Origin: Tubiluchus corallicola
Taxonomy: Eukaryota > Animalia > Priapulida
DNA length: 64,000 nucleotides
Assembly: GCA_030141605.1 (NCBI GenBank)
Contig: JAQGDQ010000138.1
Coordinates: forward strand, 456,007-520,006
Direction: 5' to 3'
In this document: one piece after another, positions 7,915 through 64,000 of the stretch
Position numbering within the stretch: the stretch's first letter is position 1
Layout: each line of letters begins with the position of its first letter
Program-made: the position numbers and the translations under genes
The notes under the pieces: model-generated
The model's input: only the letters and a program-made list of their open reading frames with translations
Database searches by the model: none
Told to the model about the DNA's origin: nothing

Positions 7915-10900
7915 TCATTCAGTCCAGCGGTGAGTGCAGTTAGAGTTCGTGCAAACGTAGTACAGCCGCATACCTTCCTACAATGTGTGAAATAAACTAT
8001 AAAATATGGCATATACAAAGACTACAAAATACATGCAACACGAAATTTTATATTTTTCTAACAAAATGAAAATCAACTTTTGTATTTTCAGTTTAGGTTT
8101 ATTGTGCACATACTTCACTTACATTAATAGTGCAATAACTTTCCAAATTCTGCATTAACTTTTGTAGCAATAGAAAAACAGCGTCAGTTTAAGTTTAGAT
8201 GCATTCCTTACAAAGTAGGTTTGACAGCTCTATAAGAAACACGATCTTAAATAACTTATTACATTTTGAAATCTATTCAAGTTTCTAGTGTATTCAAAAG
8301 GTTTGCTCAAATTTCTTTTTTTACATTTTTAAGCAAGGCATTTTGCCCTCATATATCGTGGTAATTTCAATATTTTTTTTAAGTGTATATTAAAATATAG
8401 TAAATGTTGTTCGATTGTTGGTTCTCGCTTTAAAAACAAACGTGTAATTCTCAAACTCTTTTGGTCTTTTTGCTGCTCATTTTATGGCAGTTCAATACAT
8501 GAGTTATCTGACAAAAGTGTGAAATCCTTAGTAACTGAGTTAAGGTAGGCTTTAAGTGCAGGATGTTGATTCAAATATGACTCGAATATGATTCATTGCA
8601 TCTCGTGCATCTGACCATTCACAATTTTAATTACAAAATGTATGTAAATGTTGAGCAGTCGTATAAAAAAATGGGCAAGACGATGAGATTGTGAGAAACT
8701 TATCTATCATAACTGATAATAGAAACAGCAACAATGGCGAAGAACCGCACAATTACACATTCAAGAAAGTTTATAGTTTTAGCCGAATTGACTTTGTGTT
8801 GTGAACTTTTATGGACACTTAATCATGAATTTGTAATCACGGATTTTTCTAATGATGAAGTAAAACAGCTGCTGCTAAACTTATTAACTGACTAATTAAA
8901 TGCTGGCCTATCCTAACAGTATAATATGTAAAACCAATTCTATGCTGTTGTAATATACTAGTTTTTTTAAATTTAAATTTATGTAAATATTGTACAGATT
9001 AACTAAATTATTATCGCAATTGTGTGAAATATAACACTCATTTGTAAAGCAAAATAAATAATATACACATAGACTGAACGACTGTACTAGCCTATAACTT
9101 TTTATCTGAAAAAATATGCACAATACCTCTCCTTTTTTGGTTTGAGATTGAAAAAATACTGCCTCTTTGTGCCCGCATTTTGGACAGGAATGGTCCTCTG
9201 TACGAGGTAGTGTTGGATCTGCAATCACGTCAGCAACAAGATGAGTCAACTCACTGCGGAAGAAAAGATAACCACCATACAATGTATCATATAAAACAGA
9301 GTACAATTTCATCTGCCTACAGAAAAGTTAGTTCAAAATTACATTTATATCGTCTTTCAGCATTTAGCTCCAAGGTTCCTGCACTACAAACTCAGTCAAA
9401 ATACTACACCAAATTCTAATATGAGACTGGTGCAAATGCATAAGACAGACAATTACATGATTCCACCAATCAGAGTGAGAAAGTATGTGTTAATGTAAAT
9501 AAATAAGAACATGAAAGAAAAAAATGAAATAGAACGAGAGGAGAGAGAGCAACTAGTAGTATATGCAAGTTCCTAAGGCAGCATAAGTTGTTACTTACTA
9601 TGTACTTAATATACTTACTCAACTTCATGCATTATCTTATTCACATATATGCAGTTGTTGTCTGCAATCTGCTGATATTCACAATTTCGACACTATATAA
9701 TATAAAAACAAACCATGTGTACATAAATGGAAAAAATACAAGCAAAAAAAATCACAGAAGAATAACTCTGTTTTATAAAAATAGCTGTTATTTCAAAACA
9801 CAAACCAGAAATTTGAAAACAGTCATAAAGCAGTAAACCTGATTCTAAAATAAAAGTCACATAATTAAAGAAGGCTTGCTCAGCATATAAAAAAGAAGTA
9901 AAAGCCACTATGCGAAAAAAATTACATTATAATATACCAAAAAACATTATACAAGTATACCAATTAGTAACTGAATACGAAAATTCTGTTATAATGAAAG
10001 TACAGTATACAAGCATGCAATCACAAAAACAATTACGCTTATTTATATTCAAAATCACAAACTGAAATGGGAACGGAAGCACTCTTTAAAGTGCTTAAAT
10101 TCATTCTCACGCAGCATAATTTAAAAATTTCTTACATGTTAATACAAGGTCTACTACGGTGATTACACAGCACCCTCCTCCTACATCTACTAGGAAAAGC
10201 AGTTAAACTCTACAACTATCCTGCTTCCCACCGAATGTAAGTAAAAATGGCATAGGAAAAAAATGGCCAGGAAAAAATAACACATTTGGTAAAATATGTT
10301 TATGGCTAGAGTAATAGCGGGGATTATTTTAGTTATTTCTACCTCTGCCAAGAAAGTCGTGCTGCAACATGGTTTGTTTGCTTGGTGGCTGTTTTTGTCT
10401 GTATGGCAGTAAGCTATTACACAAAAACTACCTAACAGATTTCTAGGAAACATTGTGAAGAAAGGTTGGTATAGGGTGCTAAAATGGGAATTTTTTCTCT
10501 GGTTCTTTTTTCACAGAACTTGACCAAATACCATATACAAAAAAGTATTCATGAAGCACTTCATGGAGTGCTTCATGAAGTCTCATAGGGAGCATTTAGT
10601 ACTTCTTTTTGTTATCTCCACCTGGACAAATAACGAGTTAATTCCTGTTCCATTATGAGAAATTCTTGCTAGTAAAACTGTGTAGCACTGTCTATAATCT
10701 TTACTTACTAATGTGTATAGCCTTATAAGATAACTTGGTATGTAAAACTAAATACGTATATATTGTCAGTCTATTACCATCGCCAAAATTAACGGTTAAA
10801 AAGGTAGGAAAACACTATGTGGAACATTTGTGCATTATTGATTATAAATCTGTTTAATGAACAAACATTTTGTGAGTCTGGTATGTTGCTAGTGACTCTT

Positions 10901-20851: not shown

Positions 20852-23800
20852 ATGGCGAACTTTGTGTTGAAGTTTTGTTTAATCCACGTGTGCTTTGTTA
20901 ATTTAATCTTGGGATTACCCGAGCAAGGATTATACTCACAAGAATTCTCATATGATCCTACTAAGGAAGAAGAAACATTTACAAATTTTCCATACATTCA
21001 CATGTCGAAGAGCATGTACAAAAACTCAGAAGTTTTTCTCACAGGTATAATCTTCAGTTATTACCGATATTGTTATGCAGTAGTAAACAGTAATTATACA
21101 TTCGCCTTACCCGAACGTATAATTATTGGTTGAGGCCAATAGAAAACTGTTTGAGATGGTGGAAGGTGAGTTTCGGGTTCGATTATTCAATCGTAATCAT
21201 CTTTGTAGTACTCATTCTTGCAGCTACTTTGACTCCTGTTATGGGTTTAATTTTGGTAGCCTTGTGTGTAAGGAATCCTGCACTGGGTTACATCATGCGC
21301 TCACATCCTATAGTACTTTTTATGGCGCTTGCACTTTAACTATAATCACTATAATGATATGATATATTATAATAAAACACTTTAACTTATAGTTTTACAA
21401 ATGTTGTACCTGTGAAATCAAATGACAGTGTGACACTGTTTCACTTCTTTCATCTCTTTAGTCCTGCCTCATTTTGGTAATCAATACCGGATTTAGTATA
21501 TTCTGATATTCTCTGTCTCTTCCAATTCTGTGCCATATACCCTCGTCCCCCCCCCCCCCCACTCAGTTTATTAACACACACAGCTAGCTTAAACGTACAT
21601 ATTCAAACAAATGTTGAACAGGGCAGTTGTATATATAGATCTAAGTTTGAACTGTTCTCTGTGCTAATATGATTGTGTAGCCAGGCTTTTCTTAGTATGT
21701 AAAAGTATTTAAAGATGAGAAATCAGATCCTTCGAATTACCATGTCATTGGTTTGCAGCCGCATCATCAGTAGAGTCTACTAAGTGTTTTATTTAACATT
21801 TCCCTTGCTTTGTACAATGCAGTATGTTTCTTAGCTGATAGTGACATAAATTCTATAAGATATATGAATTATAGCTTTGCCTATTATTGCTCCACTGCTG
21901 TTGTGTGCTGCCTTTATCTTTGGAAGTACCTTATAAACTTCAATTGTAAAGTATAAGTGGAAGTACACCGTCTAGGTCTATTATTTTGCTGCATTTTGAA
22001 GGCTGTAAAGTTTTTGTGTAGTGTGTTAAACCTACATTGACAGTAGTGATATTTGCTAGCAGAGCTGATATTGCATGTGTGAATATCTCAAGTTTTGGAA
22101 AAAGTAGTTTGTATTAGACACTGCTGCATATATACACTGATATAATTTGCTATGCTGAGTTGACCCTAACTGCACGCTTAGTCACTCACTTTCTTCTCTA
22201 CGCTTGGTTCCCAATAACTTAATTATGGATTTCCTTTTTTGAGACAATGAGACACATGTTAAGAGCGAGATATATGCAAGTGACAATGAAACCAGTTTGC
22301 AGTGTAGGACTAGCGCATTGTTATCTTGCAGAGATATGAAAATTGTGAATGCTATGATTCACCTTCCCTTATTTTCATTTTTAAGAATTAGAAGTGGTCA
22401 GAAGCATTATTAGAAGTGGTTGTAATGAGCTTTTTGAGTGCCCAATGTCAGTTATTTTTTAAGACGATGCTGAATGTTTGTTAAATTTTAACGTCGATAT
22501 TTAACAGTTTATAATTTTACCAGTATAAATTGAAATTTGAACTTCCTATGACTAAATTTGTTCAGAATAAGTTATCATTTAATAAACTCTCAGTCAAGTT
22601 GTAACTTTTTATAACTTTTCAAGTCAAATGTAAATGTGTTCGTGACAACAAATGTGATATAAGTTATTGAAATATAACAACACAAAGTTTGGTCATTCAA
22701 ATGCAGCAGCAAAGCATGCATATGTGAACAATAATCACCTAAGGTGTGTTTTGGTCTTCCAATTGTGAATTTGTGACCAAAAACAAAATCGAGATTGCAC
22801 TCTAACTTTGTGTTTTATAAAATAAGTACAGTCTTTCTAGTGTAAGTTACAGTACTTGTACTTTTTTGAAAATTGATTGCTTTAATAGTTTTTTATATTT
22901 ATAATAGACATGAAAAAGAAAATTCAATTAAATCAGTTCTTAAAGTGTAACGTAAATTTAGCCATAAATATTTTCACTTATAGCACATGATTTTATAGTG
23001 ATCAGTTAATTTTTGTGTGAAGTAATCATAGGTGTGTTTTGACATTAGATGTTGTAATAATTTGTGTTGAGTTTTTTTAAGCAGTTAAATAAACTTGGTC
23101 AGATCAGAGCATTTGCAGACTGTTAATTATCTGGATTTGCGTGCTTTGTGGATCACTTGAAACTGATTTTGAACTACAAACATGAGTAACTTTCATGTAT
23201 GTTTAGACACTGGTAATATTTATTAATTGCTTTTCTATTTCAGTTCACTGTGATTCAGAGACAAATGATGTACCTATATTGATGAACATAGGATGGACCA
23301 TGAGACAAACACCATGTGCACAAGAATATGTCAACATTAGCCCAGACATGCTGAAAAATTATTATGATGATCCAACCTCAATTACAGCTGAATATGATAA
23401 TTATGTGATAAATTATACTTCTAAGTGTGCTGACAAATGGAACTGTGAGGATGGGGATGTTAGTCTGTTATTGGAAAACAATGAGTGGCTTACCTTCACT
23501 GCTCCACTACAAACAAATGAAATCAACGAAGAAGAAAAGGCGATAGATGAAGAAAAAGCAGATGTGAAGGAAGTCACTGACATTAAAGCAGATGCTGATA
23601 ATACTAAGAACAAAGAAAGTGTTGAAGAAAAATCAACCCGCAAGAAAAGAAACATTTGGGATTTGAGTCGCACAAGGCAAAAACGTGCTCAATTTGAGTC
23701 ACCACTCGATGATAAGTCTTCAGAAAATGGTGTTGATGCGCTCAAACAACGCCAAGGTGATAATAAGAATACACCTGAGGTATCCGATGGGGTAGTACCA

Positions 23801-25102
23801 CCAAGTGAAGATAAGAATACACCTAAGGGATCCGATGAGGTACAACCATCAAGTGATGATAAAAATACACCCAAAGCATCCAGTGATAAGTCTCAATCTA
23901 AAACTGATGAAACTGCTAAGGCTAAAAAGGCAATTACAAGAGTTCCATTAGACGGGGTGTATCTGTTTGTCCTGAAAGTGGAACCAATCAACAATAAATC
24001 CAAATCTGATGTTAAATTTAATTTTACCATCACAATAAAACTGAAAGGCGAATATGGATATTTGTCTGCAATTGACTGGCCACTCCTGCCATTTTATGGA
24101 GCTCTTTGCATTGTTTATGCCATTTACGCCATTGTATGGTTAGTGATCAGCGCCTGGCAATGGAGGGATTTGCTACGTGTACAGTTCTGGATTGGTGGAG
24201 TAATTGCATTAGGTTTACTAGAGAAGGCTGTATTTTATGCAGAATACAGTAACATAAACAGTCGTGGGTACTCTATATATGGCGCTGTTGTATTTGCCGA
24301 GTTGATATCTGTACTGAAGCGCACGTTATCTAGGATGCTAGTCATCATCGTCTGCCTAGGCTTTGGAATTGTAAAACCTAGGCTGGGGCAAATGCTTCAC
24401 AGAGTACTTGGTGTTGGAGGCCTTTACTTTGTTCTTGCTTCCATAGAAGGATGCATGCGAGCTGTAAAACCTCGTCTAGATATGTCCAGTGGAATTATGC
24501 TTGCAGTGATTCCTCTGTCTGTTGTAGATGCTGGTATTTGCTGGTGGGTGTTTAGTAGTTTAGTGCAGACAATGAGAACACTCCGTCTTCGCAGGAATGT
24601 TGTAAAGCTGTCACTTTACAGACACTTCACGAATGCTTTGGTTTTTTGCGTTCTCGCATCAGTCGTTTTTATGGTGTGGTCAATCAAGACCCACAGATTT
24701 ACCGAGTGTTTAGATGACTGGAAAGAATTGTGGATTGATGATGCTTTCTGGCCTTTGCTATTCACAATCATTTTGCTTATAATAATGATTTTGTGGCGGC
24801 CTACAGCTAACAACACACGATATGCGTTTACTCCCCTCTTAGACCAAGCTGACGAAGAGTCTGAGGAGCCGATGCTAAATGATGCATTTGATGGTATGAA
24901 GCTTCGTGGCCAAGGTCAGAGTCCTAATGGTAATCCACCTAGGAAGCCGTATCACGATGATGTACGAGATAAAGTAGAAGACGATCTGAAATGGGTAGAT
25001 GAAAATATTCCATCTAGTGTAGTAGATGCTGCAATACCAACATTCGTAGATTCCGATGAAGAAATAATGACAACAAAATTTGAAATGTCTAAAATGGATT
25101 AG
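20852..25102 (+). CDS. TMEM87: Transmembrane protein 87 (GOST / Lung_7-TM family), 683 aa. Exons 20852-21044 and 23244-25102
   Basis: Exon 1 encodes a signal peptide and ends at phase-1 donor G|GTATAA; the acceptor TTTCAG at 23243 restores the frame. The 7TM region has family motifs GYLSAIDWPLLPFYG, WRDLLRVQFWIGGVI.LG.LEKAVFYAEY, SLVQTMRTLRLRRNVVKLSLYRHFTN, LWRPTANNTRYAF and the terminus TKFEMSKMD. Confidence 0.95.
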
Positions 25103-41881: not shown

Positions 41882-42573
41882 GGTTGTATCCGAGTTTACT
41901 GTTTACATTTACATCAACAGAGATGGGTTATATCCGAGATTTGTGTTTACGTTTACCACAAGATTCAACAAGGATTGGTTATATCCGAGTTTGGTGTTTG
42001 CATTTAACACAGGATTCAATAAGATTGGTTATATCCGAAAATGGTGTCAACATTTACCACAGGATTCAATAACGATTCGTTATATCCGAGAATGGTGTCA
42101 ACATGTACCACAGGATTCAATAAAGATTCGTTATATCCGAGAATGGTGTCAACATTTAACACAGGCTTCAATAAAGATTGGTTATATCCGAGTTTGGTGT
42201 TTGCATTTAACACAGGATTCAATAAAGATTGGTTATATCCGAGGATGGTGTCAACATTTAACACAGGATTCAATAAAGGTTGGTTATATCCGAGTTTGGT
42301 GTATGCATTTACTACAGGATTCAATAAAGATTTGTTATCTCCGAGAATGGTGTCAACATTTAACACAGGATTCAATAAAGATTGGTTATATCCGAGAATG
42401 GTGTCAACATTTACCACAGGATTCAATAAAGATTCGTTATATCCGAGGATGGTGTCAACATTTAACACAGGATTCAATAAAGATTGGTTATATCCGGGTG
42501 TGGTGTCAACATTTAACACAGGATTAAATAAAGATTGGTTATATCCGAGAATGGTGTCAACATTCAATACAGA
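41882..42573. repeat. 51-bp minisatellite, about 14 units
   Basis: Consensus GGTTATATCCGAGAATGGTGTCAACATTTAACACAGGATTCAATAAAGATT repeated head-to-tail with no unique spacers. Confidence 0.95.
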
Positions 42574-44876: not shown

Positions 44877-45875
44877 ATGAATAACACAACAGTGACAGTC
44901 GATGATTTTCCGCAGTTCGTCGTAGGAGTCTTGGGTTTTGAGGCAGTCGCTGTGATTGTGGCCAATGGAGTGGTCATTTTTGTCATTTACAAATCAATAA
45001 ATCTGAGAAGTGTGACATATTTCTTCATCGCAAACCTGTCCACGGCTGATGCTTTCTTTGGCACTACTGTACTGTTTCAGGTCTTTGTTTATCAACTGCG
45101 CCTGCAGAACACTTGGCACTGGTGCAAGATCACAGCGGCACTGATTATGATCGGCAACCAAGTCGCAATTTACTCCTACTTCTTTCTTTCTATCGAGAGG
45201 TATCTCGCTGTGTTTTATCCACTTAGGCATGGGGTCATTATGACAACCAGAATCATCTGGTGTTTCATCGTTGCTGGTTGGATGGTGGGTTTTGTTTTTG
45301 CCATACTTACAAGTGTGACGTACGATGAGGCATCGCTCAGGAGACATTGCTTGACGTTGGGTGGAGCAATGGCAACCTGGTGGTGGACTGTGCTCATGTT
45401 TATCAACTTCTTAGTATTCATTTTTGTGGTTTTTCTCTATTTATGTATAGCCAAGGAAACAATGCGCCACCTTAGAAGAATTCACACGCCACGTGTTAAT
45501 ATAAAATTAAATGTGATAAGCCCTTTTAAAAGCCATGAAACCACATCAATAATGACTCGCAAGCAACAGTCAGCAAATGTGCAACAAGAAAATAACAACT
45601 TCATGAAGAGTACGCTCAGGATGATGAAGACGTTGCTTCTCGTTCTGGGAATTTTCTTTGTCCTGTGGCTGCCATGGGTAGTCTGTGTACTAGTGGTTGC
45701 CTTTTGTCCATCATCAGTTTGTGTGAACATGAAGCCGGATAGTTATGTATTTCTGTATGTGGGCTCTGTCGGACTAAGTAACTGTTTTTTTAATGTGTTC
45801 ATCTATGCTGCCCGAATCAAGGAATTTAGAAATGCCATCAAGAAGACATTCTGCTGCTTCTCTGAAACTGCATAG
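44877..45875 (+). CDS. Single-exon rhodopsin-family (class A) GPCR, adenosine/melanocortin-receptor-like orphan, 332 aa
   Basis: Seven hydrophobic segments and an N-terminal NNT/NTT glycosylation site. Motifs: TM1 N, TM2 NLSTAD, ERY, TM6 LWLP, TM7 NVFIYA and helix-8 KEFRNAIKK followed by CC. Confidence 0.93.
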   Translation: MNNTTVTVDDFPQFVVGVLGFEAVAVIVANGVVIFVIYKSINLRSVTYFFIANLSTADAFFGTTVLFQVFVYQLRLQNTWHWCKITAALIMIGNQVAIYSYFFLSIERYLAVFYPLRHGVIMTTRIIWCFIVAGWMVGFVFAILTSVTYDEASLRRHCLTLGGAMATWWWTVLMFINFLVFIFVVFLYLCIAKETMRHLRRIHTPRVNIKLNVISPFKSHETTSIMTRKQQSANVQQENNNFMKSTLRMMKTLLLVLGIFFVLWLPWVVCVLVVAFCPSSVCVNMKPDSYVFLYVGSVGLSNCFFNVFIYAARIKEFRNAIKKTFCCFSETA

Positions 45876-48993: not shown

Positions 48994-51388
48994 AGAGGTC
49001 TTAACTCTGCACTATTTGGCAACAACAAAAATAAAAATTTCACAATGCCATTTCATTAGAGGATGGAGCCTCTTTCTGTTTAAGGTCTCATAAAATGCTA
49101 ATCTTTTGCCACTGGACGAAATGGCTTCCAGGACCTAGTAGGCCAGGAGCAGGTAATTGTCGGGTGTTGGTCGCATGTCTATAAAGGGTTCACGTAGGGA
49201 GTTATCTAAGCATCCAAAATCAATCAACATGACGTTTTTGGGCTAATAAGTCAGGCAGATCATAAGCTTACGACCTTATCACAATGTCTGGCTGCCCTCC
49301 ACACCTGCTACAAATACACTTAACCTGGTAAAGTAGAGTTTTCTAGTCTTTGAGTTATTTAAAAAAGCGTATTTCGGAAAATAAAGCATCGTAGACCGAA
49401 AAAGAACAGCAGATTTTGAATGTATGCTCCTGCTTTTTGGCGCTTTCTGGGTAAACCGCGACTCGCAATTTTGACAAGATGCATCTGATTCTCCGTTTCA
49501 TGCGGAAGCCAATGGTGTATGACGCGCCTCTGTACGATTTATGTCTTCCATTTACAGAGTGTTTAAAGGAAAACCATGTCATTTTATTGTTATTCGCTTA
49601 TCTTATTTTGCTAAGCCTGGCACGTTTGACGCCTTATAGAACGGTAACGGTTCACGATAAGAAAAGCTGCATTGCATAGAATTGTTTTGCTGACTTGATA
49701 TGTTTGAGGCCCTTTAAAAATGGACCCTAACACCAGGGTTTACAGCAACTGTGCCCCAAATTAGTGTTAGCTTTTATTTACGCGTAGCCATTTAAGGTAA
49801 TGATTTTTTACCGGAAAAACTTTTGGTGACAACGTTTCAAAATATAAAAATGTCTTTGTGACTTAAATTTTCAAAAAGTCTAAAATCGACATATCTCTAC
49901 CTGTTTGAGTTCAGTTCAAGCGATTTTTGCGCGGCTGGTGCACAGTGACACCGACTACCATATGTCCGAATTTCATTTAAAATCGATTGTTACGTGCGAA
50001 AGAAACTTTTTTTACAAGTGTGTATAAGTGTAATGCATAAACCTACCTTATCTGGTGGAGTTGTGACCTACCCCACAAAATATGTTTTCACTGGTTTCTA
50101 AAAAGATATTTTGGGTCGGGATAGGAACCACCACGGTTGTGTTCAGTGCTAAAAAACCCTTTTTTGGGACGAGGCAAAAAAGAGTTTTGAATCCATACCC
50201 ATCACATGTAAGGGTCCAGACCCATCATAATTATGTGCTAACTTAGTAGAGAAATTTTACTGGCGAGCTATGCTAGTGACGAACCGTAAAAACTGGCAAA
50301 CCGTAGTAGTGGCGAACTGAAACATCTGTTAAAGTGACAGACATTAACGTAGTAGAGACATTTTGCTGACGAATTGTGCTAGTGGCGAACCGTAGCAGGC
50401 GAACTGAAACACGTTTATTAATGGGATAAGGTAATAACATATATAGCAAAGAAATTGTACTGGCGAACTATACTAGCGGCGAATCGTAGTAATTCGAATA
50501 CTACGTAGTAACCGTAGTAATTCGAATCCAGTTTTAAATATTTTCGAATAAATTTTTGAATTACTAATGAAAGTAGTCTCATAAAGATCATGCATATTAC
50601 TTAATTTTGTACTGCGGTAAAAACGCTAATAATTTGTTTAAAATTGTACACACAAATCGCTGCCAAATTGTGTTATTTCAAACGTTTTACTGATATTGAA
50701 TGTATGTGGTTGAAGTTCAGAATTTTTCTAATCTAAAATTTTAGTGTTTGCAACGAATTCGATCTGAAAAAATTCTGAATTTGATCAAGTTGATTTGTAA
50801 TGTTTCTAATAAAGTTTTATGTATTACCAGTTTAAGAAAGGGAAAGGAAAGACACTTGAGAAGGGGTATAATTGCATGAATTTTAAGAAAAAAAATGCGA
50901 TAATAAAATTTTGTCATAGAAACTCTTGAAACTAAGGTAATTTATTAAATTATACATGTTTTCTAAATTATACCTTCCTTCCAAATTTGACGACGAGTAA
51001 AACTTTTTGGAAACATTTGTTAACACGGTGTTTTACCTCTTTGTAATTGTGGCTGTTAGCTTTCATTGTTTAAGATCAAAATTTGCTGCCTGTGTTTTCA
51101 GGACAAAAATTTGTTTCGCAATTTGTGTCTAAGCACATTCTTTAAAATGAAATGACCTGCTATATTGATGTAGGTGAAACACCTGTATGTTCTTCTGAAG
51201 CGCTCAAGTGCAATTTTAATAGCTCTTTTGGATCGCACTGATAGCAAGCATAGTAATTTGGCTGTTAGTAGTGGAGCTTACAAATCTCTTTCTTCAGGCG
51301 ATTAAAACCTGTTGGCCACTTACTTAGAACTGGTGTGTTAATTATTCCTAGTCCTTTACCTTTTTTCAGTAGCTGTACAAGAACGAAC

Positions 51389-51887
51389 ATGAACGTTTTA
51401 TTGCGTTTTATCTGCTTGGCGACAGTATGTTCAACTTGGTGTAGTACAGTACTAAGTATTGGTGAAGGCGATAGCGTTCTAACGGCTCTGAAATTTGTTT
51501 CTGAAATCAGGAAAAATGTTGAAAAATGTGACCCTGGTACAGGGCTAGTGCTTCCATTCTTTTACACGAGTCACGTCTGGAAGGAACAAGCTTCTATCGC
51601 CATTCATACAGCAAACCTGTTAGGTCAACTTCTACCACAAGGTGGAGACCAACTTGACGAAGAGTTGACTGATTTGTTATACACATTTGTGACAAATAAT
51701 GTAAAAAGTGATGATTACGTGTTTGGAGCAGTTCTTGCGTTCGAGCCAAGTTATTTAAGTCCACCGAGAAGTAAATTTGCACCGTACGCTTTTATGCAAC
51801 GAAATGGGACTGTAGGATATAAAGATTTGTCGGTTTTCTATGATTATGTGAACACAGAGACAGAATGGTATGCAGACGCCCTTCAAT
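51389..51887 (+). CDS. GPR158/179-like receptor, alternative N-terminal exon A (signal peptide + N-terminal part of Cache ectodomain)
   Basis: AACATG start, hydrophobic leader, AIHTANLL...LLYTFVTNNVKSDDYVFGAVLAFEP...FAPYAF...KDLS...ETEWY. It ends at phase-1 donor T|GTAAGT, which is compatible with the acceptor at 54639. Confidence 0.85.
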
Positions 51888-53135
51888 GTAAGTAATGCAC
51901 ACATACTCGCACACCATCACTCAAGCACGTATGCAAACCTTCCTTTCAGAACCTTTTTAGAACCTTCCTTTAGTGTATTATAGTCAGTTGGTTTCCTGAG
52001 CTAGATCTGAAGAGTCAAGTGCCTCTGTGGGCGTAGTTACTCAGAGTTAACTCATAGTGAGCATCTTGAATTCACGTCCCAGTTTAGGTGTTTATAGTGT
52101 TTTGTACTATATAAAACAGATACGACAAAGTATTGTGTTACATAATTAAACCTTTGCCATCTCGAATGTCTGGTACTATGTCAGTGGAGACATCATCCAT
52201 ACACCGACACCAATGAAGTTGAGGCTACTAAGCAAGATAGTAAATTAGAAAGTCTACAAAATATTGCACCTAAATGAGGATGTCTATTTCGTCGTAATGC
52301 CGGCGTCATTCTTTAGCCACTTTTTATATTGTGACTCAACAATAGAATTACTTTGTATTCTAAATTTTTATGAAAAAACGGATCCTTGGCAACGGAAAAT
52401 GGTATACTAAATAACATGTCCAGGTAGTTGGGCAAAAAACTCATTAAGCAAGTCTGAATGCTTTGCCTTTTGTACTAGTTTATATACTGTCACGTTAAAT
52501 TTCTAATTTCTGAGCCAACTTAATATTTGTATATTTTTTAAATGTTTCTTTCATAATGTGAGCCTGCTTTGCATAATACAATATATTGCAGAATAACGAT
52601 ATGCGTTTATGGATTTCAAGAACTATAATGGGAAATGTGATTATATAAACATAAAGCGTCAAAGCATTTTATGTCTTAAGAATACTTTATGTATTCAATG
52701 TGACTGAAACTGGAAATTTGATACAAAAATACACTGTACCAAGTGTCTTAGCAAACAGTGCGAAGTTACATGGATAAAATTTCCAGGGCTCAGCTTAAAA
52801 TTTGCAAACAATAGTAACAGTATGAGTTGGCCAACAGGCGGGCTTATCCGGCTGGGCACACCACACAAATCTATACAATTATTGCAACAAGTCAAATTGA
52901 AATCATGTTCGTTTTTTAAGGATGTCCGCTTCAGTAGAACTATAGAATAGATCAGTCAAAGTAAACTAAAAAGAACTGCGATTGTTTGTATTGGAAGCTG
53001 TAATTCCACGATGTCAATATTGAATGTTACTTGGGGCTATTAAAACCAGTTAGCTGTTCGAGCACTTTGACATTAAGAAAAATCTATAATTTTCTCCTGT
53101 CCTGCCAATCGCGAATGTGTGATTTTGCAACTAAC

Positions 53136-56100
53136 ATGAGAGTCATAAATTATTTTGCTGTTTCTGTAACAACGTACTTGGTTTTATGTGGTGCAGCGTC
53201 GAGTATACCTGTAGAAGGCGATGCTGTGGAAAAGGCTTTAGAACTCGTTTTTAAGATCAGAGAAAATTTTGACAACTGCGTTCACGCTGACGAAGCACTG
53301 ACTCTTCCATTCTTTTATACCAGTCATGTGTGGAAAAAGCAAGCCTACAGCGCCATTTCTGTTGTTAACCTGCTAAGTCAAATTCTTCCTTTTGATGCGA
53401 TTCAGCCTGACGAAACGTTTGATGATTTGCTATACGCACTAGTAACAAATAATGTGAAAAGTGATGACCACGTGTTTGGGTCGGCTATTGCGTTTAAACC
53501 AAAGTATTTGCATCTCTCTAGGTCTCAGTTTGCACCCTACGCTTTTGTACTACCAAATGGTACGATAAATTTTAAAGATCTATCGCTTTTTTATGATTAC
53601 GTGGACTTGAAACCTGAATGGTATGCAAATGCCCTCCAATGTAAGTGTTTTTCACTAATAAGCGCATACTGCTCTGTCAGAATTTATTGCCATATAAAAT
53701 AATTTTTGGCTTTCTTTTTTGACAATAAATTAGCTATGGGGTAGTAAACCGATTCTGAAATTTCAGAATCATTTATTACACCCGACAAACTCAAATCATT
53801 TTAACACTACTGAGTCGTTGAAAACTGTAATGGTTGATACATGTGCAATTGTGCTTTCTCTACAATACTTAAAAAGAAAGAGCAAACCATTTTATTTCAT
53901 GCATTGCAATTTTTAACAGAGCATTTAATTAAATAATTACGTTGATAATGACACATTTTGCATATTCCACTAATTGAACTGAACTGAATTGAATTGAATT
54001 GAATTATTTTGCGTCATACATAAAAAAACTACAAGAAAAGTTAACATGAGATTGCATAATTAGTAAGAGGGACGGGGTGGAGAAAGACCAGACGGTCACC
54101 GAGCATCCACCCCTCACTCATAAAATCTTAATTAGTAACACAATGGCAGAGTTTGGAATGAGCAGGGCATTAGTGTGCAGTTTTCAAAAATAAAAATAAA
54201 TAAACATAGAATGGAAAACTAATATACGTGTACACAAACTCAAATGCGGGGATATTAGAAGTGATTTTCCCAGAGAGCATAAACAGTAGAAAGATTACGT
54301 TATTCACGTGAACATAACCACTTTAGGGGCGAAGATATTTGGCTGAAAACGGAAATGAAAGCCAAAAAACATAACCAGTGGAAGCTATTTTTCTACAAAA
54401 ATGTTGAAGAAACACTCATTTGTTATAGCTTCAAGAACTTTATAGACAAATGATAGTAAGGCTAATAAAGAGTTATATAAAGGATATGTTTGTGAGATGA
54501 ACGCATAATTTCCAAAAAGACCACACAAACATGCATTAATTATGTAACATGCACTATACGTGCTACCAATCATTAATCATTATTTGTCATGACATTCGCA
54601 CTTCCATAAAAATTACTACTAGAGTTACTTTGTTTCCAGATGCGAATGATAGAAGCAGAGAAACACACAAAGTAGCGACGAAAGGTGGTGTGGTGACATG
54701 CCCTATTGTAACGTACGATGATGGTTATTGGTCTCACCCTTATTTTGACTGTGGAGGAGGGGACATATGGATGGTAACATACTCTGTACCTTTCTACAGA
54801 TGTGACAATGGTTCTGCTGCAAGGTCCATTGATTTTCAACCATTGTAAGTTTTGCAGAGTGAGTTTTTCTTGTGCAGGCGGTGTTTACCACGAATGCTGT
54901 GTTTTCCTGATGATCCATTAGCTTAGTAGCTCATTCGGTTTCTTGGGCGCCTTTGCCACCGACCGTACATATCTAAATATCTTCATCTCTAGACTCGGAT
55001 TCTTCGAAACTGTGCAACTTAGCGCGCTTAAGAGTGCATTTAAGCCGTTTATAATAGTGTTTTAGAATTATTTATCACTTGTTAGCACTGTTTAACACTC
55101 CAATATAAAAATAAAAAATAATAAGTGGTTACCATGACCTACTGCATAAGATAAAGACATTTTACCAACATAAATTGTAAAGATTTACAGCGTCAGCCAG
55201 AAAAATCATTATCTGAAATTCTTTAATAAAACAAAAATTACAAGTCAAAAAGGCATTAAAAAATTAAGACAATATAACAAGAAAAATTTAGTCGTAAATT
55301 TATTTTATTTCTGTTGAACTTTTAAAAATGTGATGTATAAAATTCTCTTTCCATCATAAAAAGGGATTTCTTTCCAAAATTTATTGTTTTAAATGAAAAT
55401 GAAGCCCATTTATAATATTTTCTTTATCTACATAATTTATAAAGTTGTACTGTTTGCTTTCCCTTTTATTTTTGCCTCTTTGCGAAGCCTAGGTCGGAAC
55501 TGATTATTAATTGAATTAATCTCATTTTGAGGAAATATGTCCTCGCTGAGCTAAGTTTCCATGTGCTGAAATCTAAAGCATCTACGTCGGAGCTGTTCTG
55601 TAAGTTATATTTTTTTATTTAGTGAAGTGAGTTTTTTTTATTTAAAACGGACAAATTAAAAAAATTATTTTTCTTTGTTATGGAAATACAATTTTGAACA
55701 TCACATTTTTAAAAAATTCAACAAAAATAAAAGATAAAACTTACAACTATTTTTCGTGTGTATAAAATATACACATATTCGCCGTTATTCTGTTAAATTT
55801 GTACGCGTTTTTGATTTGTAATTTTTGCATGTAGTGTTTTTGGACGACACTGCATACGTCATGAATTTCCTGTATCAAAGTACGATAAAGAATCATAAAC
55901 GGCATTGGTTATATATGAAGTATGATGCTGATTATGATGAGACAGATGATGATGATGATGATGGTGGTGTGGTGTTGATGATATTGATGATGATGATGGT
56001 AATGATGATGTTGATGTTGATAATGATGATGGTGCTGCTGCTGCTGATGATGATAACGATGATTTGTAACGGCGATGACGATAGACATAATTTCACAGAT

Positions 56101-57808
56101 ATAGCTCTAACAACTTTTCCGTTCGTCACGACTCGTACACCAAACTAAAAACTCATCTGGGTCTAATATCTTCACAGTGATTGTCTAGTTTTGACTCATT
56201 TGGATTTCATGGAAGGACGGTGGTTTCTTTCAGCCACAATAACAGTTTTTTTCATAAGCCAACAGGAATTCCAGAAAAGGATAAACATGCTTCTGGAAGA
56301 GGAAAGGAACAGCCTAGAAAGCGCAGGAAATATTATATAAAAATCGTGAACGAAAGTGAACGAAATGCGACAATTGTATTAAGTATAAATGAGACCCATG
56401 TCGAGGATTACTTCAAGGTCACAAAGTGAATCTTCATAATAAAATAACCAAACTCAATAGTAGCTGCAGTTTGGTCACCAGAGCTTCCAGTTATTATATT
56501 ATTATACAGGGGCATCGCAACTATTGACGTTGAACTCGATTCACTTGACATAAACCAATGTCCTGCAACTCCAGAAGAACAAAAATTTGCAGAGAAAGAA
56601 AAAGACAGAAATCCATTTCGAGGGACTGATCGTTGCGATCCAGAAAGTACCAAGGTACAAAAAGTTCAATGCCGACATTTACAAAAAATGAAAAACAAAT
56701 GTTGTATGAGTAGTAATAAATAGAAGGAAAAAAATTAGGCCTCACTCAGTTGAACGTTAGAATCCTTAAATGTTCTAAAGCTAGCTTCGTTTAATTTTTG
56801 TCTGGAGATATGTTGTATGCCGATTAATAAGCAAATAAATGCGAGACTTTTATTGGAATAATGTGATTAATAAGATATGCGTGTTTGTTGATCGGATTCA
56901 GATATTTTTGTGCAAAGCACCCAACCACATATTGTTATAATACAACAGTATTATAAAGCAGTTTTGATTTAATTAATTAGTGTGTCTTTGCTGCCGGAAA
57001 AGGATTCCAGCGTGGTGGTTACCATTGCGCCTGCAAAGATGGTTTCTATTATAAAGGACAACCCCAGTTCACAGGATTCGACGGAGAAGACGTTGAAGAA
57101 GCTTTTGCAAACGAACAGGCGGGACTGCCAAATGTTTACAGCAGCTTAAAATGCACCAAATGTCAACCGGGCTGTGACTCATGCGTTGATGACACTCCAT
57201 GCATATTAAACATCCGTAAGAGTTTAACTATTGGGTTTTTAGTGATCATTGGATTAAGCTTTGTCTTGGCTCTGACTTTTCTGGGGATTTTCTGGATTGG
57301 AAGCGGGAATATGGTTAGTATAATTTTATATCTATTTTGGGTAATAAATTACTTAAGTGTGCTCTCGTTTCTTCCAGCTAAAACGGAGAGCTGTAATAGA
57401 TCTAAAATTACTGCCTAGGACGAAAGGTTAATGCATTTCACCAGTCACAACTGGAAAAAGGTCTTTCTATGTCTTTCTTCTGGAAAAAGACATTTTTCAG
57501 CGATCACCAGTTACAACAGATAAATAAAAGTCATTAGCGTGTATCAGCCAAACCTTTCTTCTAATAATATGAAAAGTAAACGTAAGGATAATTCAGTACT
57601 TCATTTTTATGTATTTTGCGTACATGTAGGCTGTAAAAACATCTTCAATGGTGCTGATACTTCTTGTGACGCTTGGAATTTGCATGATGTTGTCTGAAGT
57701 AATTGTTGTCAGTTTTAAGCCAAAGCAACCGCTGTGTCATCTCGGTGTTTGGCTATTCGTTATTGGGTTTCTGCTTGCTTACAGTTCCCTGACTATGATG
57801 GCAGTGAG
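53136..57808 (+). CDS. GPR158/179-like class C GPCR (Cache + EGF-like/Cys-rich + 7TM), 3'-partial. Exons 53136-53640 (alternative exon B), 54640-54844, 56510-56654, 56981-57313, 57630-57808
   Basis: In-frame GT-AG splicing gives GYWSHPYFDCGGGDIWMVTYSVPFY, LGIATIDVELDSLDINQC, FRGTDRCDPESTKCVFAAGKGFQRGGYHCACKDGFY, CTKCQPGCDSCVDDTPC and then TM1-TM3, all recalled hallmark GPR158-family motifs. TM4-7 exons were not found in the window. Confidence 0.9.
55921..56083. repeat. Degenerate (GAT)n trinucleotide tract, intronic
   Basis: Directly visible. Confidence 0.85.
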
Positions 57809-58229
57809 GTAAGTGATAAGTTTGAATATAGCAAGATGTTGAAACGGGGATTCTTCATCCTGCTGTAAAACCTTGTCTAAGTGCCCTAAGTAGTTTTAAT
57901 ACCTTGTCCATTTAGTGTTCAAATGTCTTGAATGTTAAATTTCTGTCAAAACAGACAGTTACATAACCTAGTTACATGTAATGCTTTTATGTAGGCGGTT
58001 TGCAATAGACATGCAGGCCAAGAACGTATGAACAAAACACATCGTTGTAAATAAACCCTTATATATAATGCTACAACGGCCATGTCAGGCAGTCAGATTT
58101 TGAAGAGTACAGAGTAGGCCCTACTACACCGCTAAACGTTTATTAAAAGTCACTGCAAAAATTCTCCAGAAGAAAGTTTCAGGTTGATGAATTACACCGT
58201 CTGTGGTTGTTGCTTGCTCGAATGCTGGA

Positions 58230-58690
58230 CAAAACTGCTGGAATATTTGCAAAAATTCGTCACTATTACGCACTGGTATATCCATATCTGCAACGCTGCT
58301 TGTTGGCATGGGAACAAACTAAATTGTTTATATTGCAGCCTTTAATCACCATTCAGAACGAAATTGTTAAAATAATTACATTCGCCAATTTCAGAGCACA
58401 TGCAACTCTTTCTTACAGCCAACTCCAGCTATTAAAACTGGAAGATATTTATAACCTTGAAATGTTTAAATTTACGTATAAATTCCCAAATAATCTTCTG
58501 CCCGAACTTTTCAAAAACTTTTTTACTTATAATGTTCATACTTATTACACAAGGTCTACTAGCAAAGGAATTTTTTTCAAATAACTTAAATAGTCTGCAG
58601 CATAATGGTGCAAAATAATTTACCCTCTGAGCTAAAGTCGTGCACGGTTTTGACTTCAAAAGACTTTAAAAAATATTATTGAATAAGTAC
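58230..58690 (+). mobile_element. L2/CR1-group LINE 3' fragment (decayed)
   Basis: GIFAKIRH..YYALVYPYL...IQNEIVKII...LQLLKLEDIY.LE.FKF.YK...NLLP..F..FF..VH.Y.TR is typical of the post-RT C-terminus of L2/CR1-group ORF2. Confidence 0.75.
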
Positions 58691-60119: not shown

Positions 60120-60768
60120 GTTAAACAAATCAAAGCCAAATAATCTGGCCCACACCACTATCTCGCTGTTAACAATGTAGTTTTCAAAAAGATGCAACCT
60201 TTCTTCACTACTCATCAATGGTTTGCTGATGTTGTTATATTTAAATACGTTAACAACATCAGCAAACCATTCCAGAATAACAGATTTACCTTTTTTCCAA
60301 ATCCTATCGTTAATTCCAGAACAAGCAATCTAAAACAAATTAGGACAAATACCCACTATGGAAGGAACTCTGTAATCAAACAAGCAATTCTACTTTGGAA
60401 TTCTCTACCATTACAGGTTAAACAAATCAAGTCCCTATCAGCATTTAAAACAAAATTAAAATCACTAATATTAACCAGATATGAAATACCATCACACCAG
60501 TACAACAACATACACACTAATTCAGAATTCATATATCCACGGCCATATTAATTAAATCATAGTTTTTTTTTATATTTTTTGTGTATAGTTGTAAATATGT
60601 TTGATTTTATTCGTCATTACTACACAGTAGTTTAGGTTGCACTGACGCATTTGCCTTTAGCAGTGTAAGTTTTTATTAACTAACACTGATTGATCATCTC
60701 TGTAAAGTTTTTATCAGTGATTATCAATGTTTTTAATGGCAAATAAAGATTATTATATATATATATAC
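60120..60768 (+). mobile_element. L2/CR1-group LINE 3' end with UTR and tail
   Basis: YGRNSVIKQAILLWNSLPLQVKQIKSLSAFKTKLK motif, followed by GGCAAATAAAG and a TTA/TA-repeat tail near 60740-60767. Confidence 0.75.
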
Positions 60769-61071: not shown

Positions 61072-61618
61072 CTTGTTGGCATCCTTCTGTCTCGGAAGAC
61101 AAAGGAGTGTGCGCCAAGAGAGTCAGTTATTGATCACATTGATGGAGCTGCAGCTTCGACTGTGGCTGAGCAGTCCGATCCTTGAACGTCTCCAGGGCGC
61201 ACGCCTGGGCAAGGTGTATGGAGATCCCGAGTTGTCCAGACAACAGGAACCCCCTCTCTTCCTCCCTGGTGTAGTCCAAAGGAAAGCGGAGCTATACGTT
61301 TGGCACCAGGTTGGCTGCAGGAGCTGCCGGAGTCAGTGAGCATGCTGCACTGATCTGCCTTCGGGGCTCTACTCCTGATTTGGAAGGTTTACTCCTCTAC
61401 ACATGGCTGTTGGGTCACTTGACCTCCTCCGCCCTCTAACCGTTGGCTGCTTGTGCAGCTCCTCCGCCTAGTGTCGAGATACAGTGTGAGCATCCCGCAA
61501 GCCTACAGCACCTGGTATTCCTAGGTGGTCACCAATCCAAGTACTAACCAGGCTCTAAGTTGCTTGACTTCGGTGATCAGACGAGAACCGGTGTTTTCAA
61601 CGTGATATGGCCGTAGTT
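61072..61618 (-). mobile_element. Putative 5S-rRNA-derived SINE (SINE3) with RTE-related body
   Basis: A full-length 5S head runs without an oligo-T terminator into a GC-rich body of about 430 bp. Plus-strand motifs (GTTGGCATCCTTCTGTCTCGGAAGAC; TCTCCAGGGCGCACGCCTGGGCAAGGTGTATGGAG; GTCCAAAGGAAAG) resemble recalled RTE/BovB-type UTR sequence. Confidence 0.65.
61499..61618 (-). rRNA. 5S rRNA: 5S rRNA-like sequence (120 nt); probably a SINE head or pseudogene rather than a functional gene
   Basis: Minus strand AACTACGGCCATATCACGTTGAAAACACCGGTTCTCGTCTGATCACCGAAGTCAAGCAACTTAGAGCCTGGTTAGTACTTGGATTGGTGACCACCTAGGAATACCAGGTGCTGTAGGCTT matches animal 5S. The first two bases do not pair with the 3' GGC end, and no TTTT terminator follows. 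Confidence 0.82.
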
Positions 61619-63663: not shown

Positions 63664-64000
63664 AACCCTAACCCTAACCCAACGCAAACCCAACCCAAAC
63701 CCTACCCCTACCCCTAGCCCTAACCCTAACCCAACCCGACTCTAACCCTAACCCTAGCCCTACCCCTGACCCTGACCCTCACCCTAACCCTAGCCCTGCC
63801 CCTGACCCTAACCCTAACCCTAACCCTAACCCTAACCCTAGCCCTAACCCAACCTAAACCCTACCGCTAGCCCTAACCCTAACCCAAACCCTACTGCTAG
63901 CCCTAACCCTAACCCAACTCTAACCTAGCCCTAACCCTAGCACAACTCTAACCTAGCCCTAACCCTAACCCAACTCTAACCTAGCCCTAACCCTAGCACA
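63664..64000. repeat. Degenerate telomere-type (CCCTAA)n array, runs off window end
   Basis: CCCTAA units mixed with CCCTAG, CCCTGA, CCCAA and ACTCTAA variants. Confidence 0.92.

Follow-up and report, generated by a model that had tools for sequence, protein, structure and literature searches.

The window, a 64 kb stretch of AT-rich animal DNA without N from the priapulid Tubiluchus corallicola (GenBank assembly GCA_030141605.1, contig JAQGDQ010000138.1, positions 456,007–520,006 of the forward strand), contains one gene of the GPR158/CG31760 type in which two intact tandem copies of the first coding exon, A and B, stand ahead of a single body formed by exons C–F. The exon following F lies outside the window. 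The features of the locus are as follows (window coordinates, strand in parentheses).

51240..51388 (+), upstream non-coding stretch of A, weakly like the stretch before B; likely 5' limit of the duplicated unit
51356..51369 (+), strong 3' splice site 19 nt before the ATG of A; 13 of 14 positions are pyrimidines
51389..51887 (+), variable exon A: predicted signal peptide, N-terminal and dimer helices, strands β1–β3 of the Cache domain; PF22673, E 8e-8; 125 bits
52990..53135 (+), non-coding DNA leading up to B; putative promoter or 5' untranslated region
53136..53640 (+), variable exon B: paralogue of A with equal content and a phase-1 donor; PF22673, E 9e-7; 113 bits
54640..54844 (+), constant exon C: linker, PYFDC segment, Cache strand β4; PF22673, PF22572
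56510..56654 (+), constant exon D: last Cache strand with a conserved Asp, start of the cysteine-rich stalk; PF22572, E 1e-6
56981..57313 (+), constant exon E: epidermal growth factor (EGF)-like stalk and transmembrane helix 1 (TM1); 95 bits to the homologue profile
57630..57808 (+), constant exon F: TM2–TM3, diverged, with a phase-2 GTAAGT donor; PF00003, E 6e-7

Exon A (499 nt, 166 codons plus one base) and exon B (505 nt, 168 codons plus one base) are open throughout, carry AAC directly before the ATG and stop one base into a codon (phase 1), where the motif GCCCT(T/C)CAAT is followed by a GTAAGT donor. Either exon can be joined in frame to the acceptor at 54638–54639, and splicing A or B through exons C–F at canonical sites reads 454 or 456 codons, respectively, without a stop. 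The two encoded segments are identical at 91 of 166 residues (55%; tblastn E 1e-53) and the DNA is 69.5% identical over 433 nt (blastn), from 51464 and 53214, respectively, to just beyond the donors; a signal peptide is predicted on both by hydropathy alone, the weaker one being that of B. Neither a third copy of the front nor a second copy of exons C–F was found anywhere in the 64 kb by tblastn or by a six-frame profile search. The original prediction for this locus had described A and B as tandem paralogues at these positions, about half identical, free of stops and frameshifts, with AACATG starts, a common phase-1 end motif, in-frame access to the acceptor at 54639 and no downstream exons between them, and in all of these respects the layout stands as described.

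The original prediction had also read the conservation of coding blocks as selection on both copies, and the substitution patterns indicate that A and B are indeed both under purifying selection. Over the mature part, the ratio of nonsynonymous (dN) to synonymous (dS) substitutions per site is 0.22 by the Nei–Gojobori method (dN 0.27, dS 1.19; bootstrap 95% interval 0.10–0.38, with none of 2000 resamples reaching 1), 0.34 by LWL85 and 0.41 by YN00, with dS at about 0.8–1.2 across estimates, although such pairwise ratios average the whole history of the two copies and present use is not readable from them. The maximum-likelihood estimate was saturated and was not used. Identity between A and B at codon positions 1, 2 and 3 is 0.70, 0.79 and 0.60, respectively. 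At the 36 family-conserved columns defined among 183 homologous segments, A matches 28 and B matches 26, and the two copies agree at 32 of these 36 columns versus 52 of 106 variable ones; relative-rate counts for A and B are balanced against eight outgroups. A second DNA run (X1), which consists of contigs only (eight listed) of a type that breaks at variants, holds both exons with other alleles. Its coding changes amount to a single synonymous change in each exon (305 bases of A and 345 bases of B covered), and its non-coding changes to 14 plus three insertions or deletions (indels) in 1822 bases. The chance of finding no replacement change is about 0.02 for the two exons jointly (0.16 and 0.13 for each exon), and this synonymous-only pattern lends modest support to selection on both.

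In Pfam, exons A, B and C each match the PDC/Cache family PF22673 with scores beyond the family cut-off, while positions 2–96 of PF22572 (GPR158/179 ectodomain) are covered in order by exons C, D and E; 7tm_3 (PF00003) matches exon F with an E-value of 6e-7, below the cut-off for this piece. The extracellular Cache domain that distinguishes the GPR158/GPR179 receptors is present and is followed by an EGF-like cysteine-rich stalk, the exons scoring 52–95 bits against the homologue profile. A Cache domain with an EGF-like segment is the metazoan layout of the GPR158-type family (PMC12716839). A complete database scan with exon A gave 95 proteins, the first ten of which, when examined, were CG31760-like, mGlyR-like or uncharacterized proteins from a nemertean, a priapulid, a brachiopod, molluscs and echinoderms. 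Sixteen receptors of this kind, combined into a profile, match human GPR158 (E 5e-112), profiles holding A and B match GPR158 and bacterial Cache structures, and the AlphaFold model of a homologue (P0007; mean predicted local distance difference test score 72) finds its best structural matches in GPR179 and GPR158. Matches in the ESM Atlas were to unnamed or PDC-type clusters only.

In a tree of front segments from a quick search, with the set of 185 reduced to 84 non-redundant ones by removing near-duplicates (above 75%), A and B are sisters [Shimodaira–Hasegawa-like approximate likelihood-ratio test (SH-aLRT) 99] and adjoin a Priapulus protein (SH-aLRT 89), and the duplication is therefore local to this lineage. 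The nearest relative of A and B is P. caudatus XP_014665103.1 (P0002, 203 amino acids, 36% identical), a single front-only model, unlike the paired fronts of the window. A word-based search of short proteins with A, B and the Priapulus protein revealed no second Priapulus copy and one weak Cache match, and longer proteins, searched in the same way with exon A, gave no matches. The animal loci inspected likewise have an intron in the linker after the conserved Trp, lying about 14 codons farther on than in the window gene and, where the donor is readable (L027 and L034), in phase 2; the front was thus already a separable module. Short front-only proteins in the databases were considered as support for orphan exons and rejected, as seven of the ten checked are unnamed or hypothetical calls from short public contigs, in keeping with single-exon calls. 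The second front at the C-terminus of P0141 is most simply explained if this model has been fused with the tandem gene that follows. In protein P0056, a GPR158-type Cache–EGF ectodomain is joined to a kinase-like and a guanylyl cyclase domain and thus sits on a different signalling body, and the stretch L002:131-2668 is an 846-codon frame with two tandem GPR158-type ectodomains.

According to the model of the homologue, the variable exon supplies over half of the Cache domain, namely three of the five core strands and the helices, with exons C and D adding the other two strands. Alignment to Cache sensors of bacteria predicts pocket residues (F130, Y133, D146, Y153 and W160 of A) that are identical in B, and further pocket elements (PYFD, Met-x-Thr and the last Asp) in the shared exons. 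Differences between A and B occur at second-tier positions: two residues before the conserved Trp, A has Thr158 versus Pro160 in B, a position occupied by Thr or Ser in 78% of animal homologues and by Pro in 2%, and the copies also differ in strand β1 (Ala-Val-Leu versus Ser-Ala-Ile) and at Glu119/Lys121. A profile built from bacterial relatives and the window's exons ranks HK-Z6 (3LIC), 3LIB, McpX and TlpQ above PctA and PctC. The Arg located two residues before the pocket Trp in the dCache_1AA amino-acid motif (R126 of PctA; PMC10104139) corresponds to Thr in A and to Pro in B, as mapped by distance from the conserved Trp. From the dCache_1AM motif (R103, D133, W155, F188/Y189, M215, S217 and D235 of PctD), the Trp-Tyr, Met-x-Thr and last Asp are present, whereas the equivalents of R103 and W155 appear to be Thr and Ala. 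Ser172 and Arg173 of GPR158, which we take to be glycine contacts, align to Phe and Gly in both A and B, and glycine binding in the manner of mGlyR seems unlikely.

The ligand is probably amine-like (a small amine- or amino-acid-like molecule), and its class is likely to be common to A and B because the core pocket residues are identical. The original prediction had suggested different ligands on the basis of segments such as VNTETEWY versus VDLKPEWY. This segment does hold the likely specificity site (Thr158/Pro160), but the predicted core pocket residues are the same and 32 of the 36 conserved columns are equal, so that the suggestion carries little weight; it would be safer to expect tuning of affinity or selectivity, or a different site of expression, than ligands that are unrelated. 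The dimer contacts of the GPR158 ectodomain (F135, M139, W156 and L160; PMC8611064) align inside the variable exon and are hydrophobic in both copies. Because the dimer helices and contacts fall in this exon, mixed A/B dimers would be possible in addition to A/A and B/B.

Over the 150 bp that precede their ATGs, A and B are more alike than in 500 shuffles (local alignment, p ~0.01; global alignment over 120 bp, p ~0.02), so the duplicated unit took in some upstream DNA. Over 300 bp p is 0.06, and farther upstream and downstream of the donors it is 0.10–0.69; the flanks, initially thought not to be recognizably similar, are therefore alike immediately before the ATGs and dissimilar beyond. The upstream acceptor of A, previously noted at 51361–51369, is borne out, its 13 of 14 pyrimidines comparing with 8–9 in the other four acceptors of the gene. 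Its position 19 nt before the ATG implies a non-coding leader exon, and A is probably not the true first exon. No pyrimidine-rich YAG acceptor occurs within 190 nt of the ATG of B (use of an AAG site would be possible), and acceptor candidates farther upstream would leave upstream ATGs. The 28 pairs of inverted repeats around the exons are short and AT-rich, with no RNA-pairing or docking-site mechanism evident among them, and no spliced-leader RNA was found near the 5S gene of the window. An in-frame splice from A to B via the open frame upstream of B (in-phase AG at 53049) was rejected because of its poor pyrimidine tract, its lack of protein conservation and the internal signal peptide that would result. 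The product of intron read-through would be a secreted half-domain without two core strands and is unlikely to fold.

Because both exons are under purifying selection and there is one body for them to join, a pair of variable exons on a constant body, as in the original prediction, explains the locus best, with present splicing of both exons being the inferred part of that proposal. The one RNA run compared with the window covers only repeats and speaks neither for nor against it. We consider it reasonably probable that A and B are used alternatively on the one body to give two receptors. Each transcript would keep one front copy, placing different Cache fronts on the same stalk and membrane part. 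A would be joined behind a non-coding leader through its strong acceptor, and transcripts using A would skip B for want of a B acceptor; B would most likely rely on a promoter of its own within the 1.25-kb gap, or on a weak acceptor, after which the donor of A or of B would join exon C. A shared leader with a mutually exclusive choice would be an alternative route to the same two proteins. In a more elaborate version, which as a whole we think unlikely, promoter-selected Cache fronts of different selectivity would sit on a constant pocket half and a non-canonical seven-helix domain without an ionic lock, and A/A, A/B and B/B dimers would have distinct ligands; by analogy, Thr versus Pro would then lie where bacterial sensors read the acidic end of the ligand.

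A number of observations weigh against the alternative use of both exons, beginning with the junctions 51887→54640 and 53640→54640, which are derived from frames and splice signals and not from transcripts. B is without a strong acceptor or a demonstrated promoter and so could be unreachable, and no X1 contig bridges A to B or B to C. Among 284 homologous proteins, none of 288 pairs sharing long exact stretches shows a swapped front on a near-identical body (largest gap 0.12), and two fronts occur in none of the six informative animal loci (those with an animal-type front and a PYFDC exon among 80 metagenome loci; only two have more than 4 kb upstream). Tandem duplicates of entire genes occur commonly among these receptors, as in consecutive Solemya models on one chromosome, and the gene's 3' half, where an RGS7-binding tail would be encoded, lies outside the window. 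The tandem copies, the signals wanting before B, the failure to find a relative with the same layout and the silence of pairwise dN/dS on present use would all suit a recent orphan, created either when two whole tandem genes diverged under selection and the upstream body was then deleted, or when B lost its acceptor or promoter, leaving one exon spliced and the other not yet decayed. We regard these two histories, taken jointly, as rather unlikely. The loss would have had to be very recent, as in simulated neutral drift (2000 runs per level, indels excluded) A survives intact in 33%, 12%, 2.6% and 0.1% of runs at 0.05, 0.1, 0.2 and 0.4 changes per site, respectively; furthermore, the X1 haplotype is synonymous-only in both exons, though weakly so for each (p 0.16 and 0.13), and the GTAAGT donors of A and B are both perfect. 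A misjoin in the assembly that set exon A of a separate gene beside B, or hid a second body, would be in keeping with the unbridged junctions, with a dispersed repeat between the exons (deep pile-up near 52310–52390) and with the depth of the contig over A (23.6 versus 5–13 for most neighbours, depth not being copy number). However, A and B, only 69.5% alike in DNA, are too dissimilar to have been collapsed, the spacer is unique apart from that repeat, the window contains no N and X1 covers pieces across the whole interval, making such an artefact very improbable.

The shared membrane part also counts against two working receptors. The original prediction had them share the seven-helix domain, but only TM1–TM3 lie within the window, with exon F the last exon found, and a profile search of the 6.2 kb after exon F gave nothing above 5 bits for TM4–TM7, whereas exon-sized TM4–TM7 pieces from the 15 homologues of greatest divergence, excluded from the profile as a control, score 26–91 bits. 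The shared TM2–TM3, moreover, is more diverged than in any homologue tested and lacks Lys3.50, a point absent from the original prediction: exon F scores 33 bits, below all 14 divergent homologues tested (47–79 bits), and has Met in place of the Lys found in 129 of 129 homologues with a residue at this position, which corresponds to K502 of GPR158 and is part of the TM3 ionic lock (PMC8611064). The neighbouring near-invariant Gly, Thr and Trp are also altered, and a Pro in intracellular loop 1 has become Met. With the defining residue gone and the seven-helix domain incomplete in the window, we describe the gene as GPR158-like by ectodomain and descent and do not assume canonical signalling. 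Exon choice might then be real and the body degenerate or cut after TM3, the heads serving as ligand-binding decoys, as co-receptors or as partners in dimers with another receptor of the GPR158 type. Loss of the TM3 motif at four near-invariant positions, the low score of exon F and a following 6.2 kb occupied by repeats, a 5S gene and a telomere-like array would fit such a body. On the other hand, a perfect phase-2 donor ends exon F where homologues continue, the window simply ends 6.2 kb later, fast evolution is seen across the whole gene and not only in its membrane part, and GPR158 itself signals through RGS7 and not by ordinary coupling (PMC8611064, PMC12834959); a non-signalling body strikes us as improbable.

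Clusters of variable first exons are an established design, found in UGT1A, UGT2A, GCNT2 and the clustered protocadherins (PMC1885805). As in UGT1A and the protocadherins, the window gene has tandem paralogous 5' exons, each with a start codon and a predicted signal peptide, same-phase donors, one constant acceptor, no body between the copies and purifying selection on each. Unlike these systems, it has only two variable exons, encodes an invertebrate class C receptor and is cut through one Cache domain, with the pocket built from both parts. It has the Cache domain, EGF-like stalk and class C helices in common with GPR158 (mGlyR), GPR179 and CG31760-like receptors (PDB codes 7SHE and 7EWL; PMC8611064, PMC12834959). 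It differs from GPR158 and GPR179 in its duplicated first coding exon and the loss of Lys3.50. In FGFR IIIb/IIIc, the choice between duplicated exons exchanges one half of the ligand-binding domain and shifts ligand preference, but these exons are internal and mutually exclusive, unlike the first coding exons here. GABA-B1a/1b is a class C receptor in which alternative promoters give different N-termini; its forms differ by added sushi domains and not by paralogous ligand-binding copies. The Drosophila genes Gr28b and Gr39a have duplicated alternative 5' exons on shared 3' exons and resemble the present case as single sensory-receptor loci with several isoforms, which in the Gr genes have different functions, but they encode ion channels of an unrelated family and their variable part is most of the membrane region. 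Gr28b has five isoforms, of which only D gave current (PMC5772361).

No such arrangement was found for the GPR158-type family in the literature searched (mostly non-subscription papers), and the two-exon UGT1A-style layout is apparently new for these receptors. Invertebrate GPR158-type receptors are orphans, and diversification here normally proceeds by whole-gene copying. If both exons are used, the locus would constitute a natural swap experiment in which two Cache fronts with few pocket differences are set on an identical background, a tidy system for studying what sets ligand selectivity in animal Cache domains, and the UGT1A/protocadherin layout would be extended to a class C G-protein-coupled receptor (GPCR). 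The scale is modest, with two exons in one lineage so far and a layout that is itself well known.

Downstream of exon F, a 5S ribosomal RNA gene (61500–61618, − strand; 98.8 bits) with a GC-rich flank and very deep coverage in the DNA run occupies what would be the next intron of the receptor. Remnants resembling the 3' end of a non-LTR (long terminal repeat) retrotransposon reverse transcriptase were recognized by eye at 58147–58584 and 60144–60551 (+ strand), without a Pfam match. The right end of the window carries a degenerate (CCCTAA)n array (63664–63995, + strand) in the orientation opposite to that of a right-hand telomere, i.e. an interstitial repeat or a junction. Upstream of exon A by 5.5 kb, on the same strand, lies an intronless rhodopsin-family GPCR (44877–45875, + strand). 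A 51-bp tandem array of about 13 copies (41914–42572) is open in several frames. A gene of the TMEM87/GOST family (23207–25102, + strand; probable first exon near 20855) has most of its coding sequence in a single frame of 631 codons, within which lies a short 48-bp tandem insert, and an exon resembling the RNA polymerase II subunit RPB9 (8908–9327, − strand) was recognized by eye.

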